From a virus (Duplodnaviria; Heunggongvirae; Uroviricota; Caudoviricetes), in IMG/VR virus record IMGVR_UViG_2563366840_000011, positions 1-64,000 of that record: DNA of 64,000 bases. One strand, given 5' to 3'. The notes beneath the pieces were generated by a model that was not told the origin of the DNA, ran no database searches, and saw only the letters and a program-made list of their open reading frames with translations. Shown here one piece after another: positions 33,142 to 41,297 of this stretch (position 1 is the stretch's first letter; each line of letters begins with the position of its first letter). The translations under genes were made by a program, and so were the position numbers.

Positions 33142-34191
33142 TTACGCCAGTACGCCAATTGCCAGCGCGCGATCGATAAAACGAAATATCAGCTCCAGTT
33201 GGGAGCCATACTTATCTTCAAATGCCACTGTATCCGTATGCAGCTCGTTGTGATGCTTTCTGCACAAAGGCAACACAAAGAGATCATGTGCTTTTGTTCC
33301 CATTCCGCCCTGCCCGTGACCAATCAGATGATGCGGATCGTCGGCTGGCATACCGCAGCAAGCACACGGCTGTGTCTTAACCCAACGTGTGTATTTCTCC
33401 TTAACCCAGCGGCGACGTTTAGGCAGCTTCATGAAAGATTCCGGAGACTCTGGATCAACGGTGATGCTTACCACCGTCTTTTCCTGTGGTGATTTTTGTT
33501 GCTGGTGGGCGTAAGGCAACGGTGCAAGATTTTTTGTGCGTTGTTTCAATATGCTGGTGGCGGTCTGCTCTCCCGGTACGATGTCGCTTTCGCGGTACAC
33601 CGAGCAGATTTTTTCCGCTGGTAATCCCAGCGAACGACGCGATACAGCCTCAGGTAGTGCATCCACCACCTGATTGCAGACCGCCCACCAGGATAATTCA
33701 GCCAAAGATAATTCCCGCTCCTGCGTACCGCTTATTGCGTGACGGATGACGTCAATCACCCATGCTGTCAGATTTTGTTGAGCAAGCAGCTCCAGTGATT
33801 CCGATGTCTGGTCACGCAGTTGGTTGTCGCAGTGCCAGCACAACACCATTGCGCCGGTACCATAACGGTGAATGACTGTTTCAGTGTGATGGTAATCGCC
33901 ATTAGGCCACTGGCAGGATGTAACATGACGTAATAGCCAGTCGGACAATGCGCCAACGCCGCCAGCAGCACGAATCACCCGTTCGTTACTAAAAAACGGC
34001 AGCAATGTTTTGTCTTCCGCCAGCGGCTGGCGAACGGCAGGAACGACTCCGGATGGCAGATTACGCATGCTTTTTGGTTCCGGTTCCACCAGCACTCGAG
34101 GATTATGAAATATCTGTATGGATTCACGGCCCGGCTTAAGGACCACCAGCCCAAGCTCAGGCACCAGAACAGGTCTAAGTAATACCCGCAC
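33142..34191 (-). CDS. ydfU: YdfU-like DUF968 protein with C-terminal HNH-like motif
   Basis: 349 aa from GTG at 34191 with GGAGG SD 5 nt upstream; C-terminal CxxC...HH...H HNH-like signature. Confidence 0.7.
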   Translation of the reverse strand: MRVLLRPVLVPELGLVVLKPGRESIQIFHNPRVLVEPEPKSMRNLPSGVVPAVRQPLAEDKTLLPFFSNERVIRAAGGVGALSDWLLRHVTSCQWPNGDYHHTETVIHRYGTGAMVLCWHCDNQLRDQTSESLELLAQQNLTAWVIDVIRHAISGTQERELSLAELSWWAVCNQVVDALPEAVSRRSLGLPAEKICSVYRESDIVPGEQTATSILKQRTKNLAPLPYAHQQQKSPQEKTVVSITVDPESPESFMKLPKRRRWVKEKYTRWVKTQPCACCGMPADDPHHLIGHGQGGMGTKAHDLFVLPLCRKHHNELHTDTVAFEDKYGSQLELIFRFIDRALAIGVLA

Positions 34192-34192
34192 G

Positions 34193-34471
34193 TTACCTCC
34201 AGATCCGTTGCTGGAAAGTGCGGGACGCACGTGGTGGGCGTTCGGAATAAGGCAGCCTGACAGAGATTATCCAGTGCCGATAGTCGAGACTGAGAGCTTT
34301 CTTAACCTCGAACCCGCGCCTGCGGTAAGAATGAATCAGCCATTCGGCCTGTTCTGCAGTGCATGGAGGGTGCTGGAACCATTCAGACTTGAATGCGTGA
34401 GAATACCGCCCGTGCGTGCAGGCAAGAACGGGCGAATTATCAGAATTGTAATATTTTGCGTTGCGTGCCAT
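34193..34471 (-). CDS. Hypothetical 92-aa protein, translationally coupled to ydfU
   Basis: ORF whose stop lies within the ydfU SD/start region; no confident family. Confidence 0.4.
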   Translation of the reverse strand: MARNAKYYNSDNSPVLACTHGRYSHAFKSEWFQHPPCTAEQAEWLIHSYRRRGFEVKKALSLDYRHWIISVRLPYSERPPRASRTFQQRIWR

Positions 34472-34537
34472 CGGTTTTCTCCGGTGGCACGGTGTTACTC
34501 AGCGGGAGTTCAGCCCCGCGCAAGATTGTAGATGAGT

Positions 34538-34789
34538 TTATTCTTCTGAAAAAGCAGAAAAGCCAGCTTTTATTCCGATCTCTTTCAATGCCTGTAATGA
34601 AGTGACAAACTCACCTTCGCGCAAGATAAATCCGTCCGTGACCCGAGCATCCACAAAATTAATTAACGCAGCCCCATTCTTTCGCAAACACATAATGCGG
34701 TAATGACTAACAAGATTTCCATTTTCAACGCACACAGCATAGAGGCCATCTTCACAAAAAATTTTACGCAGTTCTTCGATGTTCATCAT
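34538..34789 (-). CDS. rem: Rem-like small prophage protein (83 aa)
   Basis: 83-aa ORF in the Qin rem position between ydfU and hokD. Confidence 0.55.
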   Translation of the reverse strand: MMNIEELRKIFCEDGLYAVCVENGNLVSHYRIMCLRKNGAALINFVDARVTDGFILREGEFVTSLQALKEIGIKAGFSAFSEE

Positions 34790-35005
34790 CAGAATCCTTC
34801 CGGATAATTAGCTCTCCCCTTTAAGGGACCATCCCTCTTATCCCTGCGCGCTACTTAAGTATTTTTGATTCTATTCCGGCACCGTCCAGAACTTCAAACG
34901 CGTTGAAAATAAAAACAAAAACCCGCCGAAGCGGGTTAAGTGCGGGTGCGTTGAGGATGCCTGCCACATCAGAGGTGGCGAGGGATTTCTCCCCCGCCGG
35001 GTCTC

Positions 35006-35161
35006 TTACTCCTCAGGTTCGTAAGCTGTGAAGACAGCGACCTCCGTCTGGCCGGTTCGGATTCGTACCTCGCAGAGGTCTTTCCTCGTTACCAGTGCCG
35101 TCACTATGACGGTTAAACAGATGACGATCAGGGCGATTAACATCGCCTTTTGCTGCTTCAT
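35006..35161 (-). CDS. hokD: Hok-family type I toxin (HokD/RelF), 51 aa
   Basis: Hand translation MKQQKAMLIALIVICLTVIVTALVTRKDLCEVRIRTGQTEVAVFTAYEPEE; not in the ORF track (under 60 aa). Confidence 0.8.
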   Translation of the reverse strand: MKQQKAMLIALIVICLTVIVTALVTRKDLCEVRIRTGQTEVAVFTAYEPEE

Positions 35162-35232
35162 AGCCTGCTTCTCCTGTCAACGCAAAGCAGAAGTGTCACC
35201 TTCGGTGCGAAACAGAGATGTCATGCTTTGGT

Positions 35233-35520
35233 TCAGAGAATGCGTTTGACCGCCTCGCTATATACTTCCGAGCGTTCTCTTTTCCCAACAGAAATCACGA
35301 AAACGACAACTTTCTCGTCTATAACCTGGTATACAAGGCGATAGCCTGAAGACCGGAGCTTAATCTTGTAACAATCAGGCATACCACGGAGCTTGTTTGC
35401 TTCAATCCGGGGTGACTCAAGTACTTCAACCAGCTTCTTTTTCAACTGTTCACGTACCGTCGAGCCCAGCTTTCGCCATTCCTTTAGTGCCCGCTCGTCA
35501 AAATCCAGAAAATACGCCAT
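35233..35520 (-). CDS. relE: RelE mRNA interferase toxin
   Basis: 95-aa ORF matching RelE. Confidence 0.9.
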   Translation of the reverse strand: MAYFLDFDERALKEWRKLGSTVREQLKKKLVEVLESPRIEANKLRGMPDCYKIKLRSSGYRLVYQVIDEKVVVFVISVGKRERSEVYSEAVKRIL

Positions 35521-35759
35521 CAGAGTTCATCCAGCGTCACACGTACTGGCTTAGGATTACGAAGCCGTTCTTTCACTATCTCCACAAGTTCAGCATCTTC
35601 ATCACTCAGGAGTGTCTGTTTGAACGGCAAGCGTTCATTGTCAGCGATATACTCGAGCATGAGACGAAGCGCTTCAGAAGGAGTTACACCCATTTTTTCA
35701 AGCGCGGCGTAAGAACGCGCTTTAAGTTCATCGTCAATACGCAGGTTAATGCTACCCAT
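35520..35759 (-). CDS. relB: RelB antitoxin
   Basis: 79-aa ORF matching RelB; stop overlaps relE start. Confidence 0.9.
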   Translation of the reverse strand: MGSINLRIDDELKARSYAALEKMGVTPSEALRLMLEYIADNERLPFKQTLLSDEDAELVEIVKERLRNPKPVRVTLDEL

Positions 35760-35783
35760 GTCTTACACCTCTTGTAATTACAA

Positions 35784-36089
35784 ATGTCATTACAAGTATC
35801 GCACTACAACATGCTTAGGGCAAGTCACGAAGGAAGTCAGAAAGTAGTCGTAAGAACGGTGATCACTGTCCGCTTTGTGCCAGGAGCAGCCATTGCTAAG
35901 TCCATCCTGTATTGTGCAGGTCAGCTCGTTTTTAAAGAGTCCGGCCATCATCTTACTGGTACAGACACCATATACTTTGTGACGGTCAGGCTACATATGC
36001 ACAACTCAACTTATTCATCTATTTTTTGCTTTAGCATGTCAGTGTTGCTTTCTCGTCGGCGGGTGAGCGGTGACCTGACCTGTCGATAA
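35784..36089 (+). CDS. ydfV: YdfV-like hypothetical protein
   Basis: 101-aa ORF in the Qin ydfV position; weak sequence support. Confidence 0.35.
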   Translation: MSLQVSHYNMLRASHEGSQKVVVRTVITVRFVPGAAIAKSILYCAGQLVFKESGHHLTGTDTIYFVTVRLHMHNSTYSSIFCFSMSVLLSRRRVSGDLTCR

Positions 36090-36291
36090 AGGAACGTAAC
36101 ACGTTTTATGCAACACCCGCATGCGGCAGAAAATTATTGCCGAACGTTTACCCCTGTCAACAAGCTTTACTTTCTGAGGCGCGCCAGCCCGCGAGGAAAA
36201 CAATCTGAACATCAAACAATTAATGACACAAGAAATACGATTAAAGATTTTTTTGTGCATGCCGATAGTGCTTTTTTAAAAGGAGAAATCT

Positions 36292-36624
36292 ATGTCTGTC
36301 ACAATTCAGGGAAATACCTCAACCGTTATTTCAAACAACTCCGCCCCGGAAGGAACATCAGAAATAGCCAAAATCACAAGACAAATTCAGGTGCTGACTG
36401 AAAAGCTTGGGAAAATCTCATCGGAAGAGGGGATGACGACACAGCAGAAAAAAGAAATGGCTGCATTGGTACAGAAGCAAATTGAAAGCCTCTGGGCTCA
36501 ACTGGAGCAGTTGTTAAGGCAGCAGGCAGAGAAAAAGAATGAAGACGCGACAGTTCAGCCTGATAAAAAAGAAGAGAAAAAAGACGATACAAATACCGCT
36601 GGCACCATTGATATTTACGTCTAA
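36292..36624 (+). CDS. flxA: FlxA (FliA-regulated coiled-coil protein)
   Basis: 110-aa ORF matching FlxA; AGGAG SD. Confidence 0.85.
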   Translation: MSVTIQGNTSTVISNNSAPEGTSEIAKITRQIQVLTEKLGKISSEEGMTTQQKKEMAALVQKQIESLWAQLEQLLRQQAEKKNEDATVQPDKKEEKKDDTNTAGTIDIYV

Positions 36625-36638
36625 GTGACAGCCGTATT

Positions 36639-36662
36639 GTGGCCCTCATCGGGCCACTTTTC
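36639..36662 (+). terminator. Rho-independent terminator of flxA
   Basis: gtggccc-tcatc-gggccac hairpin followed by TTTTCG. Confidence 0.6.
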
Positions 36663-36999
36663 GCCATCAGCCTTTTCTTTAAAGACATATTATCTTTGTA
36701 TCATTTCTGATAGTTAACATTACAAGATATAAGTAATGGACGCACTCCCAATTAGTCTATTTAAATCGCCACGAGTTTAACTGACAACCCATGATCAATT
36801 ATGAATTGCAACTATTTCTGTAGTCACTTTTGTGGGGACAGTCCACAAAACTGCCAACTTCCGCTTCTTGCTCTTAGCGGACATTAGCATAGGCTATTTA
36901 CCATAACGCCTCATTACGCGCACCGCCCAGACTGACTCAGCGCGTTTCTGGCATATCCCCGGTAAAACAAGTAACAAACCACCCGAAAATGAACACCAG

Positions 37000-38450
37000 A
37001 AACGCGACTTAAGAATCTACCCTATGAATGGATATGCACTCAACCGAATCGATCTTGGTTTCAATCTTTTTTATCGGGATCAGGCTTCTTTTTAGGTAAC
37101 TTCGGGGGCTTAACTTGCTGATGACTTTGCGTTCGGCGCGTAAGCCAGGGATGGTCAGCTTTAGGTTTAACATAGTATTTTGAGCGTAAATCAATACGGG
37201 CATTATCCACTCGTTCATGGACACTCTTTTCATCATCCAGTGGTATAGGCTCCGGGCCATCAACATACTTTTCCCAGCCCAGCGCTTTCCCGTCATACAG
37301 AACGTTAATTTCACCGTCAAAGTTCTCGCATACAGTAACAACCGAATGCCTAAGTCGATATCCCCGGCCCTCACTGCGTACCTGAAACGCACTGCTTTTG
37401 TACTGGAAAGTGAGATTTTTAGACAGAACGCGCTTCGCCTGTAGGCTGAAGATATAACCCAGTTCCTCTTCAGAATGGTGCACATCAAGATGAGCATTAT
37501 CAGTAGTACGAGGCGACGTAGCGAACCGGTTGTTATAGGCTTCAATAAAGGTCGGCAACCATGCATTTGCTGTTTCAATATCACTGATATTCTGAAGCCG
37601 CATTTCTTTGACCAGCCTGTCCTGTAGTGTCTGATTGGCGCGCTCTACCCGCCCTTTTGCCTGCGGGCTGTTGGCATGGATTGGCTCGATGCCCAGTGTC
37701 TTTATCGCACGAGTGAACTGGGTCAGCTCACCTTCCCGCTCTGGGTTATTTACCCTGAATATACTGTGTCTATCAGAGTAGAGAGCGAGCGGTACGCCAT
37801 GATCATTAAGGTAACCCCGGAGGGTTTCCATGTAAGCCCGGGTTGTTTCAGCAGGCACAAAACGCAACGCCATCAACGCACTGGTGGCATCATCAATGAA
37901 AACGATCAGTGTACATCTGGGGCCTCGATTTTCAAACCAGTCATGAGGTGAGCCATCAATCTGGATCAGTTCACCGTAAGATGGTCGTCGCATGCGGCGT
38001 TGATATATACGGGCAATTTTACGACGGCGTTCACGCCATAACCCCTCTTCTATCATCCACTTTCTGAGAGTTTCAACGGATAAAGATAAACCGTGTATCT
38101 CGCGCAATTTTTCGCACGCAAACGTAGGTCCAAAATCAGCGTAACGGCCTTTGAGGAGTGAAATTACTGTTGCTCTGAATTCAGTAGAAAAGGAATTATT
38201 AGGACGCTTTCCACGTCGGTGGGAAACCAGACCAGAAGGCCCTTCATTTCTATACCGTTGCACCAGACGTTTAACCTGCCGAATAGAAATGCCAATGCGT
38301 GCCGCAGCTTGTTCCTGAATAATCTGAAGTCGATGGAGTTCCTTATGACTCATCGTAACAGTCTCTTTGATCATGAAAAATCCCCCAGAGAATTGTCTGG
38401 GGACATTTTAGAATGGTTCAAAGGGGACATTACAGCTTGGTGTTAACAAT
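37000..38450 (-). mobile_element. Insertion sequence carrying the 437-aa transposase; ends not resolved
   Basis: Single large transposase ORF between flxA terminator and an AT-rich small-ORF region; terminal inverted repeats could not be located by eye. Confidence 0.4.
37061..38374 (-). CDS. DDE transposase with N-terminal HTH and integrase-core (rve-like) domain; IS family not assigned (IS481/ISNCY-like guess)
   Basis: 437-aa ORF with HTH at N-terminus and D...D...E integrase-core pattern; basic Lys/Pro-rich C-terminus. Confidence 0.7.
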   Translation of the reverse strand: MIKETVTMSHKELHRLQIIQEQAAARIGISIRQVKRLVQRYRNEGPSGLVSHRRGKRPNNSFSTEFRATVISLLKGRYADFGPTFACEKLREIHGLSLSVETLRKWMIEEGLWRERRRKIARIYQRRMRRPSYGELIQIDGSPHDWFENRGPRCTLIVFIDDATSALMALRFVPAETTRAYMETLRGYLNDHGVPLALYSDRHSIFRVNNPEREGELTQFTRAIKTLGIEPIHANSPQAKGRVERANQTLQDRLVKEMRLQNISDIETANAWLPTFIEAYNNRFATSPRTTDNAHLDVHHSEEELGYIFSLQAKRVLSKNLTFQYKSSAFQVRSEGRGYRLRHSVVTVCENFDGEINVLYDGKALGWEKYVDGPEPIPLDDEKSVHERVDNARIDLRSKYYVKPKADHPWLTRRTQSHQQVKPPKLPKKKPDPDKKD

Positions 38451-38708
38451 AGCCTGCTTCTCCGTGCCTTTCGGCACGTAAGAGGCTAACCTACATGTGT
38501 CTAGCATGAAATTGGCCTCAGATTAATGTTAAGCGTCTTGCAGGACGCGTAATGTTAACTGGGGCTTTTCTCTATCTGCCGTTGGTGTCCATGCCCGAGG
38601 CAGATAGCCTCAAGCACCCGCAGTCATTCTACTTAACTAAGATTTCCCCGCAAACCGTTTTTGTCCAGCACAGTAAATATCCAACTAAACCAATGGAGTT
38701 CGCTGTAT

Positions 38709-38888
38709 TTACCGCCAGTATTCAATGCACATGACCGCCATGAACACCCCTAAAAAAAGGGCATTTATATATCCAAATATTAATATCAAAACATCAACTT
38801 TTTCCATATACCTTGCTGTGAAGATGATGGGCATACATGATGCGAACAACCAGAACGCAACAAACAAAAACTGCAATGCGTTTTTCAT
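38709..38888 (-). CDS. Small hydrophobic two-TM protein (59 aa), hypothetical
   Basis: ATG preceded by GGAGG SD; two hydrophobic helices; AT-rich. Confidence 0.4.
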   Translation of the reverse strand: MKNALQFLFVAFWLFASCMPIIFTARYMEKVDVLILIFGYINALFLGVFMAVMCIEYWR

Positions 38889-39139
38889 TATTCCTCCTAC
38901 AATCAATGTGCAATTACATTTAAACACACCTCAATTTGGCCGGACATATAAATATCTAAACCAGAAAAAATCACTTACATAGCGTTACAAACTCTTTAGT
39001 CTAAAGGTTCATCGTAAAACATTCCCCATACTTATCAGTCCGTTCCGCGCCAGGTAGCTCATTGCCTTATCTGGCAACCTGTAATCAGGTTTCCGCTTTT
39101 TCAGTTGGCTGGTCGTTTAACCGACATAGTTAATCCATT

Positions 39140-39790
39140 AATCTAGTTGCCGGATGTTGGTGGATTTTCGCGTTTTAGTTGTTCATAAAAGTGCACAGCT
39201 TTAACCAGTTCTTCTGATGTAACTGGGACTGGTGAGGCAGTGAATAAGGCCTGAATTTGATAGTTCGGCCTGTCGTTACAATCCTCTTTTTTCGGTACAT
39301 ATTTCCAGTCACCAGACCACTACTTCCCCTGAAAGTCCGTAACGCCTTTTTTCACGTAGCGATATCGCCATGCCACTGGTTTTGCTTGCCCCGCCGTTTC
39401 ATGCCCTTCCTGATAATTAATCTCGCTCATTCATCGCCCCACTCATCACAATATGCTTCGACCGGAGTTTTTCCCGCTTCATAGTCATCACGCTAGGATT
39501 CGACATCAGCAGCACTTCCACCGCGTAACTCACCATAGTCCATTAATAGTTCATCCCGCTCTTCAAAACTGATGTTATATTTAGCTGAACAAAAATCAGC
39601 CACTTTGTTCTTCCTCATCGTCTTTTATTTCGTGGTATGAGTAATTGCAGTAGTTAAAGAAAATTTCTTATGCTCCGTCATGAATTTCCTCAGGTGTTGC
39701 GTCATCGTCCACTTCGAATACATCCTCAAAATCTCCACCAGCTATTCCCGTTTCAATAATAATTTTGAACTTTCGCATTTCACTACCGCC
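39140..39790 (-). pseudogene. Run of short, frame-broken ORFs (36-41 aa pieces), probable degraded prophage gene(s)
   Basis: Hand translation gives consecutive short ORFs in different frames (MRKFKIIIETG..., MRKNKVADF..., MSEINYQEGHETAGQAKPVAWRYRYV...) with no ORF of 60 aa or more. Confidence 0.3.
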
Positions 39791-40193
39791 CTTTCGGGCG
39801 GCCTCCTGATGTTCTGAGGGTGCAGAAATCCATCCGGTTAAGGATTAAATTTTATTTACAGAACTGAATTTAATTATTCAGATATACGTATCTGTAGCCT
39901 TACGAATCTACTCACTGGATGCCTCTTTCATAAAAATAATCCAGTGGGTTTTATCGTTTTTTCCCCTGTTCGTTGACAGATAACAGGTTTTCTGTCTGTC
40001 AGTGCCAGAATCTGGCTTACCGGTATTTGCGTTTCATTCCATTAAAAAATCAGAACGCCGTGCGGCCTCAACACCCGAAAGGCTTCTTTAAATCTCTGTC
40101 GCGAATCATCACGCCAGGCATCTTTATTCAGCCGTCCATATTTCTTTCCCATCCAGGCGTTATCACCAACACTCTCAAGGTAATGACTCCAAC

Positions 40194-40697
40194 TTATTGA
40201 TAGTGTTTTATGTTCAGATAATGCCCGATGACTTTGTCATGCAGCTCCACCGATTTTGAGAACGACAGCGACTTCCGTCCCAGCCGTGCCAGGTGCTGCC
40301 TCAGATTCAGGTTATGCCGCTCAATTCGCTGCGTATATCGCTTGCTGATTACGTGCAGCCTTCCCTTCAGGCGGGATTCATACAGCGGCCAGCCATCCGT
40401 CATCCATATCACCACGTCAAAGGGTGACAGCAGGCTCATAAGACGCCCCAGCGTCGCCATAGTGCGTTCACCGAATATGTGCGCAACAACCGTCTTCCGG
40501 AGCCTGTCATACGCGTAAAACAGCCAGCGCTGGCGCGATTTAGCCCCGACATAGCCCCACTGTTCGTCCATTTCCGCGCAGACGATGACGTCACTGCCCG
40601 GCTGTATGCGCGAGGTTACCGACTGCGGCCTGAGTTTTTTAAATGGCGGAAAATCGTGTTGAGGCCAACGCCCATAATGCGGGCGGTTGCCCGGCAT
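40194..40697 (-). CDS. insB: IS1 InsB (expressed as InsAB' by frameshift)
   Basis: 167-aa ORF matching IS1 InsB. Confidence 0.9.
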
Positions 40698-40891
40698 CCA
40701 ACGCCATTCATGGCCATATCAATGATTTTCTGGTGCGTACCGGGTTGAGAAGCGGTGTAAGTGAACTGCAGTTGCCATGTTTTACGGCAGTGAAAGCAGA
40801 GATAGCGCTGATGTCCGGCGGTGCTTTTGCCGTTACGCACCACCCCGTCAGTAGCTGAACAGGAGGGACAGCTGATAGAAACAGAAGCCAC
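40616..40891 (-). CDS. insA: IS1 InsA
   Basis: 91-aa ORF matching IS1 InsA. Confidence 0.9.
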
Positions 40892-40946
40892 TGGAGCACC
40901 TCAAAAACACCATCATACACTAAATCAGTAAGTTGGCAGCATCACC

Positions 40947-41297
40947 CCTTTTTCAGTGAAAATCTCGCCAAGCGGTGTCTGGCTGTTATTAATCGCCCAG
41001 TCAGCCCCGCTCTCTTTCGCTTTTTCCAGTCGTTCATCAATGCGATCGGCAACAATCACATTTTTAACGTTATAGACGCCTTTTAATACCTGAACGATCG
41101 TCAGGCCGATTGGACCGGCACCATAAACCAGAACGGTATCATTTTCAGTCGGTTGACCATGTCCGGTTACGTTAGCCGCAATGGTAAAAGGTTCGATCAT
41201 TACCGCATATTGATCGGCCACTGCTTCAGGAATTTTCCACGCATTTTTTGCCGGAACCACGGCATATTCACTGAAACCACCGTCAGCTGTGGGGAGG
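40947..41297 (-). pseudogene. Internal fragment of a zinc-type medium-chain dehydrogenase gene (rspB-like by position), truncated at its 3' end by IS1 and at its 5' end by the Mu-like prophage
   Basis: Translation ...DGGFSEYAVVPAKNAWKIPEAVADQYAVMIEPFTIAANV...VLVYGAGPIGL... shows the MDR substrate-domain and Rossmann GxGxxG pattern; the frame reads straight into the IS1 terminus. Confidence 0.55.

Follow-up and report, generated by a model that had tools for sequence, protein, structure and literature searches.

Organization of the orf59 region

The window analysed here, i.e. the whole 64,000-nt stretch at positions 1 to 64,000 of the IMG/VR record IMGVR_UViG_2563366840_000011, is a Qin-type lambdoid cryptic prophage of E. 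coli/Shigella. Our subject is a minus-strand open reading frame (ORF) of 59 codons, named orf59, located at the distal end of the rightward delayed-early (nin-like) operon. Its upstream neighbours are three small genes, g1, g2 and g3, and downstream of it lies the 5' half of a hok/sok locus that has been split by a transposon (Table 1). Of the small genes in this block, orf59 alone has remained intact in the window. We put the probability that this anatomy is correct and that orf59 is a real gene for a membrane protein, whatever its mechanism, at roughly 60%.

The ORF starts with an ATG at 38886-38888, ends with TAA and is preceded by the single GGAGG found on the sense strand of an AT-rich cassette. 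This cassette is bounded by the end of the phrog_660 gene (g3) on one side and by the conserved hok module on the other; homology to phages devoid of orf59 (L004, L005) resumes at 38666. The G+C content of the block 38700-39050 is 31-39%, versus 43-51% in the flanks, and mobile elements lie on both sides: an IS1202-family element, whose end is at 38448, and IS1. An earlier note, made from the sequence alone, had described a strongly hydrophobic 59-aa ORF with a GGAGG ribosome-binding site in an AT-rich block between two IS elements, and this description holds.

The orf59 peptide has a grand average of hydropathy (GRAVY) of 1.27 and two hydrophobic segments, at residues ~4-24 and 31-55. Since 52% of the second codon positions are occupied by T, any such ORF would encode a hydrophobic peptide. 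AlphaFold2, supplied with a nine-sequence alignment, predicted a helical hairpin (H2-26 and H28-58, mean predicted local distance difference test score of 74), in agreement with the two transmembrane segments proposed earlier; helix 2 is followed by only four residues (E-Y/C-W-R). As both lineages of the protein described below have a basic N-terminus (MK / MRK) and a loop ranging from neutral to acidic, the product is predicted to be an inner-membrane hairpin with both termini in the cytoplasm. The pattern G39xxxA43xxxG47 and the buried Asn N42 suggest helix packing or oligomerisation.

Two other reading frames were considered and rejected. A 72-aa form of orf59 with a GTG start would contain the GGAGG within its own coding sequence, and in the second lineage a stop in its frame, 15 nt before the ATG that both lineages share, interrupts it. 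An antisense ORF of 85 aa (38725-38982, plus strand) has stops at codons 64 and 80 in common haplotypes and is missing from the second lineage. This antisense ORF has been annotated instead of orf59 in phage records (PV340562.1, 10959-11210; ON470612.1, 23105-23356), once under the name 'hornerin', which is probably a mis-annotation. The region does not align with any known gene on the opposite strand. The RNA of the cassette has no significant fold (z = -0.59) and no Rfam family was found in it.

Homologues and coding evidence

No family could be assigned to orf59 by searches against Pfam (at E<=1), PHROG and NCBIfam profiles, a PDB sequence-profile search or a BFVD fold search (at E<=0.001). 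The PADLOC defence profiles matched neither lineage of orf59 nor g1-g3. Initial homology searches retrieved only copies of at least 93% identity in E. coli and Shigella, plus truncated versions; a 53%-identical match in one genome (L088), considered as a divergent homologue, proved to be a frameshifted orf59 copy. A phmmer search of 1.84 billion proteins detected a homologue of the same length, 59 aa (P0041/P0046), with 41% identity over residues 1-59 (E = 1.2e-8). We refer to this homologue as type B and to the lineage present in the window as type A. No third lineage was found by word-index and full phmmer searches, by tblastn against phages and plasmids, or in scans of viral, genome and metagenome contigs.

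The alignment of the two types is ungapped. The 23 columns that are invariant among four aligned sequences include W13, S17-C18-x-P20-I-I, T24, F38-G39-x2-N42-A43-L44-x2-G47-V-F and the C-terminal I55-E56-x-W58-R59. At the DNA level the ORFs are 59% identical and share the start, the stop and all 59 codons with no indel. In type B an in-frame stop precedes the ATG, as mentioned above, which makes the start of the 59-aa form the one common to both lineages. Codon positions 1/2/3 are identical at 58/72/48% of sites, and the proportions of non-synonymous and synonymous differences (pN = 0.34, pS = 0.71) give a dN/dS of ~0.21, a value that comes from one pairwise comparison with saturated dS, as only two lineages were found. 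Amino-acid change between the lineages is thus estimated to have been ~5-fold slower than silent change. Similarity between the two DNA sequences is limited to the ORF and ~45 nt of the 3' flank, while the rest of the flanks cannot be aligned.

Because the homology between types A and B is ungapped, dN/dS is ~0.21 and codon-position identity follows the order 2>1>3, orf59 very probably is, or recently was, a genuine protein-coding gene. The homology search with the 59-aa peptide, which the earlier note had proposed as a check, yielded a divergent homologue of equal length with a signature of protein-level constraint, and the ORF is conserved in related prophages; neither of the two outcomes that the note had named as refuting was observed.

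Distribution and neighbourhood of orf59

Of 5426 complete E. coli genomes, 1570 carry type A (at >=95% identity) and 1045 carry type B (at >=99%), the latter being typically B2 strains (ST131, ST95, NC101). Among 97 related phage records three carry type A, and inducible phages are among the carriers; six plasmid records contain orf59, mostly on chromosome-like pieces. Many complete E. coli genomes, those of ATCC 8739 and W among them, match about 1.3 kb around orf59 at 100% identity, and the phage record PhiR42_1 (ECOR13) matches it at 99.9%.

Type B resides in a Rac-type remnant at ttcA that has been heavily eroded, with fragments of integrase and DUF1627 genes on one side and a decayed gene for a metal transporter on the other. 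In one IMG/VR contig (L091) the genes cdtA, cdtB and cdtC of the cytolethal distending toxin directly adjoin the integrase fragment of this remnant.

In type A loci the hok promoter and leader come next downstream of orf59, and in type B a decayed 3' fragment of hok follows after ~45 nt. In each of the loci that were inspected closely (the window, L003, L007 and type B), a hok sequence lies directly downstream. This adjacency is compatible with a table of 85 loci, because the cases scored there as 'hok absent' are mainly Qin-type loci in which hokD is located beyond the 3-kb flank. Phages without orf59 (L004, L005) have unrelated genes, or none, in the slot between g3 and hok.

Decayed genes upstream of orf59

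The earlier note interpreted a series of 36-41-aa ORFs in shifting frames upstream of orf59 as a decayed gene. The sequence is indeed decayed coding sequence, and the Prokaryotic Genome Annotation Pipeline (PGAP) calls pseudogenes in ATCC 8739 at the positions corresponding to 39009-39430 ('frameshifted; internal stop') and 39596-39778 ('DUF7167 family protein, internal stop'). The idea of one repairable gene broken by frameshifts had to be rejected: alignment with intact relatives gives three separate genes inactivated by nonsense codons. Related phages carry three intact, tightly packed small genes at this place. The intact homologue of g1 matches Pfam PF23768 (3.4e-14; 53.1 bits versus a cutoff of 24.4) and phrog_1997 (5e-30), and the intact forms of g2 and g3 match PHROG families at 4.5e-23 and 6e-43, respectively. 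The short ORFs 39668-39778, 39493-39618 and 39320-39430 are the N-terminal parts of g1, g2 and g3, while a fourth, of 39 aa (39417-39536), is out of frame and is also found opposite intact g2 in relatives. The frames appear to shift because g1, g2 and g3 lie in different frames, their stop and start codons overlapping. Nonsense codons, rather than breaks of the frame, make up most of the lesions, and all three genes are dead in the window. Most of what the block shows is ordinary decay of a prophage, with one genuine small gene left in it.

The premature stops of g1 (TAA), g2 (TAG) and g3 (TAG) all fall at codon 37, ~175 nt apart. The change in g3, CCG>TAG, requires two adjacent substitutions. 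No repeat or shared motif was found at the three sites, and the common codon number may be a post-hoc coincidence.

The split hok/sok locus and the relBE transposon

The hok/sok sequence downstream of orf59 was identified by an Rfam match to sok (RF01794; 104.1 bits versus a gathering threshold of 59), covering full model positions 1-157. The hok leader ends at 38449, where it abuts the end of the transposon, whereas hokD starts at 35161; both halves are bridged by the hok of L003, which is uninterrupted. In the window the hokD coding sequence lies on one side of the transposon, and its promoter, leader and sok region lie on the other. It encodes a 437-aa transposase (37061-38374) with HTH_32/29/28 and rve_3 domains, and its cargo further comprises ydfW, flxA, ydfV, relB and relE. 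Its ends are TGT...ACA, with inverted repeats matching at 19 of 26 positions. The target-site duplication ATAGCCTGCTTCTCC is the reverse complement of GGAGAAGCAGGCTAT, which represents the hok ribosome-binding site plus the 'AT' of the start codon; GGAGAAGCAGGCTAT is present at both junctions.

Members of the IS1202 family have TGT...ACA ends with imperfect inverted repeats of ~24-26 bp, and the ISEsa1 entry is 1609 bp long with no detectable duplication (PMC10132070). Duplication lengths reported for IS1202 subgroups are 5-6, 15-17 or 27-28 bp (bioRxiv 10.1101/2022.12.17.520857). The element in the window shares with this family the ends and a single large transposase (about 400-500 aa) with N-terminal helix-turn-helix domains and a DDE/RNase H core. 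Its duplications, counted over the window and the plasmid loci described below, are 15 bp long at three different sites and 16 bp at a fourth, as in the 15-17 bp subgroup.

A transposon 99.5% identical to that of the window is present on Enterobacter, Salmonella and E. coli plasmids. In the window and in three plasmid loci (Table 1), the transposon occupies the equivalent site, the hok ribosome-binding site/start codon, always in one orientation, which suggests site-specific targeting of hok loci. Among 76 viral-contig copies, one has non-hok flanks and no clean duplication. On an Enterobacter hormaechei IncFII plasmid (L095, 3583-3599; NZ_CP085771.1) transposon ends stand head to head with 15 bp between them (CAGGCCTTCTTCTCC); this arrangement looks like a tandem or circle junction, with relBE upstream of the transposase. 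Integration of relBE into hokD has been reported (PMC6379469), and no description of a hok-targeting cargo transposon was found in the accessible literature. It appears that the relB-relE-hokD (relBEF) arrangement of E. coli K-12 was created by a cargo-bearing IS1202-family transposon that inserts repeatedly at hok-family starts.

Prophage setting and rearrangements

Annotated records place the orf59 region inside a Qin-type lambdoid prophage, with the following minus-strand gene order: dicC (cro), ydaT-like, O-like, DUF977, S-adenosylmethionine (SAM)-methyltransferase, orf59 region, ISNCY transposase, ydfW, flxA, ydfV, relB, relE, hokD, rem, ydfU and Q. The ancestral order is cro (dicC), ydaT-like, O-like, DUF977, methyltransferase, g1, g2, g3 (phrog_660), orf59, hok/sok, rem, ydfU and Q; L007, with its series g1-g2-g3-orf59-hok-rem, serves as the intact reference arrangement.

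In the window, IS1 is bordered on one side by what is left of the 3' part of the methyltransferase gene and on the other by an internal fragment of rspB. It follows that the dicC/dicA/dicB/intQ arm of Qin has been deleted: everything promoter-proximal of the methyltransferase remnant, the dicA/dicC immunity region and the early promoter included, was removed by IS1. The homology to rspB ends again at 41291, which suggests further rearrangement in an IS-rich, Shigella-like genome.

K-12 MG1655 matches the window only over 34000-37245, the match ending inside the 3' part of the IS1202-family transposase gene (K-12 positions 1647174-1647358, L089, are the counterpart of window 37061-37245). K-12 has therefore lost the orf59 region, and the stretch it kept beyond flxA, ydfW included, is the tail of the transposon. 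In K-12 Qin, ydfW is followed by ydfX and dicC. The deletion spans the interval from the transposase gene to ydfX/dicC and removed the hok leader, orf59, g1-g3 and the replication genes.

Table 1. Features of the orf59 region and related loci. Positions without a record name refer to the window.
Feature	Position	Strand	Basis or remark
orf59, 59 codons plus stop; predicted two-helix inner-membrane protein (type A lineage)	38709..38888	minus	ORF list, hydropathy, AlphaFold2, homologue
Shine-Dalgarno GGAGG, 4 nt 5' of the orf59 ATG	38893..38897	minus	read from sequence
AT-rich cassette holding orf59, 342 nt, 36% G+C	38667..39008	minus	composition, homology
g3 pseudogene, phrog_660 family, intact 119-171 aa	39009..39430	minus	alignment with L004, L007 copies
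g3 lesions: CCG>TAG at codon 37; 3' deletion/frameshift between two 'NPP' motifs	TAG at 39320-39322		alignment
g2 pseudogene, phrog_519-like, intact 58 aa	39427..39603	minus	alignment with L003, L004, L005 copies
g2 lesions: start ATG>GTG; W37 TGG>TAG	TAG at 39493-39495		alignment
g1 pseudogene, DUF7167 / phrog_1997, intact 57-60 aa	39596..39778	minus	alignment; PGAP
g1 lesion: K37 AAA>TAA	39668-39670		alignment with intact relatives
hok/sok 5' half: hok mRNA leader, sok region, mok start	38448..38619	minus	Rfam RF01794 sok
hokD (relF) coding sequence, 3' half of the same split hok locus, downstream of relBE	35006..35161	minus	
Transposon, 3274 bp, IS1202-family (PGAP 'ISEsa1 family', ISNCY)	35175..38448	minus	ends, transposase, duplication
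15-bp target-site duplication ATAGCCTGCTTCTCC	38449..38463 and 35160-35174		Qin hok, window
Qin SAM-methyltransferase gene, 3' remnant	about 40041-40178		position mapped from ATCC 8739
IS1, 768 bp	40179..40946	minus	ends read from sequence
rspB internal fragment	40947-41291		99.7% match to K-12 1653239-1653582
Type B copy	L091 326-4180 (IMGVR_UViG_2684622582_000011); L092 8134-9481 (NZ_CP146667.1)		heavily eroded Rac-type remnant, B2
Transposon on Salmonella IncI plasmid	L093 1506-4806		duplication ATCATAGCCCCTCCA (15 bp); target pnd-like hok gene
Transposon on Enterobacter IncF plasmid	L094 1519-4819		duplication ATGGCCTTCTTCTCC (15 bp); target hok/mok
Transposon on Citrobacter IncFIB plasmid	L096 2019-6173		16-bp duplication; target hok; 4.2-kb variant, other cargo, same ends

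Possible role of orf59

Consensus scans of the window and L007 revealed neither a promoter nor a terminator specific to orf59, although weak promoters could escape such scans. As the gene lacks these signals of its own, in an intact phage it would be made from the early read-through transcript. In composition orf59 differs from its flanks, as a 'moron' does, but it has no transcription signals of its own that these scans could find, and it resembles an early gene within the operon more than an autonomous accessory one. We suggest that orf59 may be a non-essential accessory protein. During lytic growth it would oligomerise in the host inner membrane, or bind a partner there, and would change the permeability or energisation of that membrane. 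This last step, the engagement or perturbation of the inner membrane, is put forward tentatively, as a possibility that we hold to be less probable than not. In the window genome, in which the prophage has been decapitated, orf59 is probably silent and drifting.

Several observations weigh against the view of orf59 as a functional membrane-protein gene. Of 5000 dinucleotide-shuffled versions of the 342-nt cassette, 655 (13%) contained an ATG-initiated ORF of at least 59 codons on one strand or the other, so the length alone is not beyond chance for this composition. Among the first 85 loci, type A comprised 19 haplotypes (the decayed L088 copy excluded), with five changes in the ORF, all non-synonymous. 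In 171 type A copies seven changes were non-synonymous and one synonymous, and in type B the counts were three and zero. The 7:1 ratio fits neutrality (p = 0.51) and does not fit a dN/dS of 0.2 (p = 0.017), and single-nucleotide polymorphisms are not significantly sparser within the ORF than in its flanks (Fisher p = 0.22); the variation within lineages thus gives no sign of present-day purifying selection. One genome (L088) carries the gene in a frameshifted form. In the records inspected, RefSeq PGAP annotates neither strand at orf59, and a literature search with orf59 peptide strings returned no match and no expression or proteomic evidence. To these points should be added the single, saturated comparison behind the estimate of constraint and the fact that the proposed membrane mechanism was drawn from features of the sequence alone. 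Part of this evidence would fit the view that orf59 is no gene at all, but a frame left open by chance on the T-rich strand of a spacer rich in A+T, which happens to be preceded by GGAGG and whose hydrophobicity follows automatically from its second codon positions. We consider such an origin improbable, as a chance frame would hardly retain its start, stop and length without an indel at 59% nucleotide identity, with the dN/dS, E-value and codon-position pattern given above, between flanks that otherwise cannot be aligned; nor was an RNA structure found in the cassette that might provide another reason for the conservation.

Among functional alternatives, the earlier note had suggested a toxin, a superinfection-exclusion or an abortive-infection factor, as small membrane proteins of prophage accessory regions often are. 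A lysogenic-conversion or defence factor of this kind, expressed from the prophage and kept for the benefit of the host, would be in line with a small two-helix membrane protein of AT-rich, foreign-looking composition, which adjoins the hok/sok addiction module in a slot filled by unrelated genes in other phages. It would also be in line with the intactness of orf59 in Qin, where its three upstream neighbours are dead, and in the eroded Rac remnant throughout B2 strains. However, the searches of Pfam, PHROG, NCBIfam, PADLOC, PDB and predicted folds lent no support to this reading, and in the absence of a sigma-70-like promoter or terminator at orf59 expression in a repressed lysogen is not expected. 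Moreover, the substitutions within lineages look neutral, and as intact copies are >=95-99% identical, the survival of a 59-codon ORF does not need selection. A defence role thus seems unlikely, if somewhat less so than the remaining possibilities. One of these is a functional tie to hok/sok, with orf59 acting as a membrane partner or modulator of Hok, or as a leader cistron that feeds hok expression. In both lineages hok sequences lie within ~45-90 nt 3' of the ORF, and the ~45 nt of conserved 3' flank point in the same direction, but many hok-bearing lambdoid phages have other genes or none in the slot (L004, L005), orf59 occurs in only three of 97 related phage records, and plasmid hok loci are devoid of it, the six plasmid records being mostly chromosome-like. 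The linkage may be plain inherited synteny, and we regard the tie as improbable, to about the same degree as a chance origin of the frame. A bolder version, in which orf59 would represent a new family of hairpins working with the prophage hok as a protein-level Hok modulator, an immunity partner or a co-released second effector, would explain why both deeply diverged lineages stand directly upstream of hok; we believe it to be the least probable of all. An early gene of the operon, expressed by read-through and active in the host membrane during lytic growth, is the reading that we prefer.

Comparison with known small membrane proteins

By architecture, orf59 is closest to toxins of the GhoT/OrtT type and to small exclusion proteins and pinholins, yet it fails every test of sequence or context for membership in these groups. 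GhoT and OrtT of E. coli are two-helix membrane toxins of 57 aa (Pfam PF10753). Like them, orf59 (59 aa) is predicted to consist of two hydrophobic helices with a short loop between them and to lack a soluble domain, but it has no Pfam match, no GhoS-like partner gene adjoins it, and it belongs to a phage early operon and not to a chromosomal toxin-antitoxin pair.

With the Hok/Gef proteins orf59 shares its small size, its hydrophobic, inner-membrane character and its location, as both are found in the same prophage region and adjoin each other in both lineages. Hok has one transmembrane helix and a periplasmic, Cys-containing tail, and mok, Sok RNA and the long-range folding of its mRNA control its synthesis. 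orf59, in contrast, has two predicted helices, an exposed strong ribosome-binding site and no Pfam or NCBIfam match to Hok, and the sok signal is located downstream, at 38448-38619, and not over orf59, whose cassette shows no significant fold.

T4 Imm and HK97 gp15, which act in superinfection exclusion, and the class II holin (pinholin) S21 are likewise small phage membrane proteins. They resemble orf59 in being phage-encoded, shorter than 100 aa and equipped with two predicted transmembrane helices, and an N-in/C-in topology is plausible, but neither sequence nor fold matches. Unlike holins, orf59 has no charged C-terminal tail or dual-start motif, and unlike the genes of class II holins/pinholins it is situated outside the lysis cassette, upstream of hok, rem, ydfU and Q. 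HK97 gene 15 is an autonomous moron, which orf59, to judge from its lack of detectable transcription signals, is not. The nin-region genes g1-g3 share with orf59 the operon, the orientation, the packing of small ORFs and the mosaicism between lambdoid phages, whereas their products are soluble, acidic and assigned to PHROG families; orf59 is the sole membrane protein among them and has no PHROG. We file it as a new member of the general class of small phage-encoded membrane proteins.

Significance

Small prophage membrane proteins are a recurrent source of toxins and exclusion factors, and a conserved 59-aa candidate of this class is therefore useful, though not surprising. Leaving aside the overlap of the counts, orf59 of type A or B would be carried by as many as about half of the complete E. 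coli genomes. The annotation of the region can also be corrected: phage entries carry a non-conserved antisense ORF in its place, and the 'decayed gene' next to it is in fact three genes inactivated by nonsense codons. If orf59 did turn out to belong to a family of Hok partners, hok/sok systems would gain their first described protein partner. The neighbouring transposon may matter more than orf59 itself, as it bears on the origin of relBEF in K-12 and on the repeated insertion of such elements at the starts of hok-family genes.

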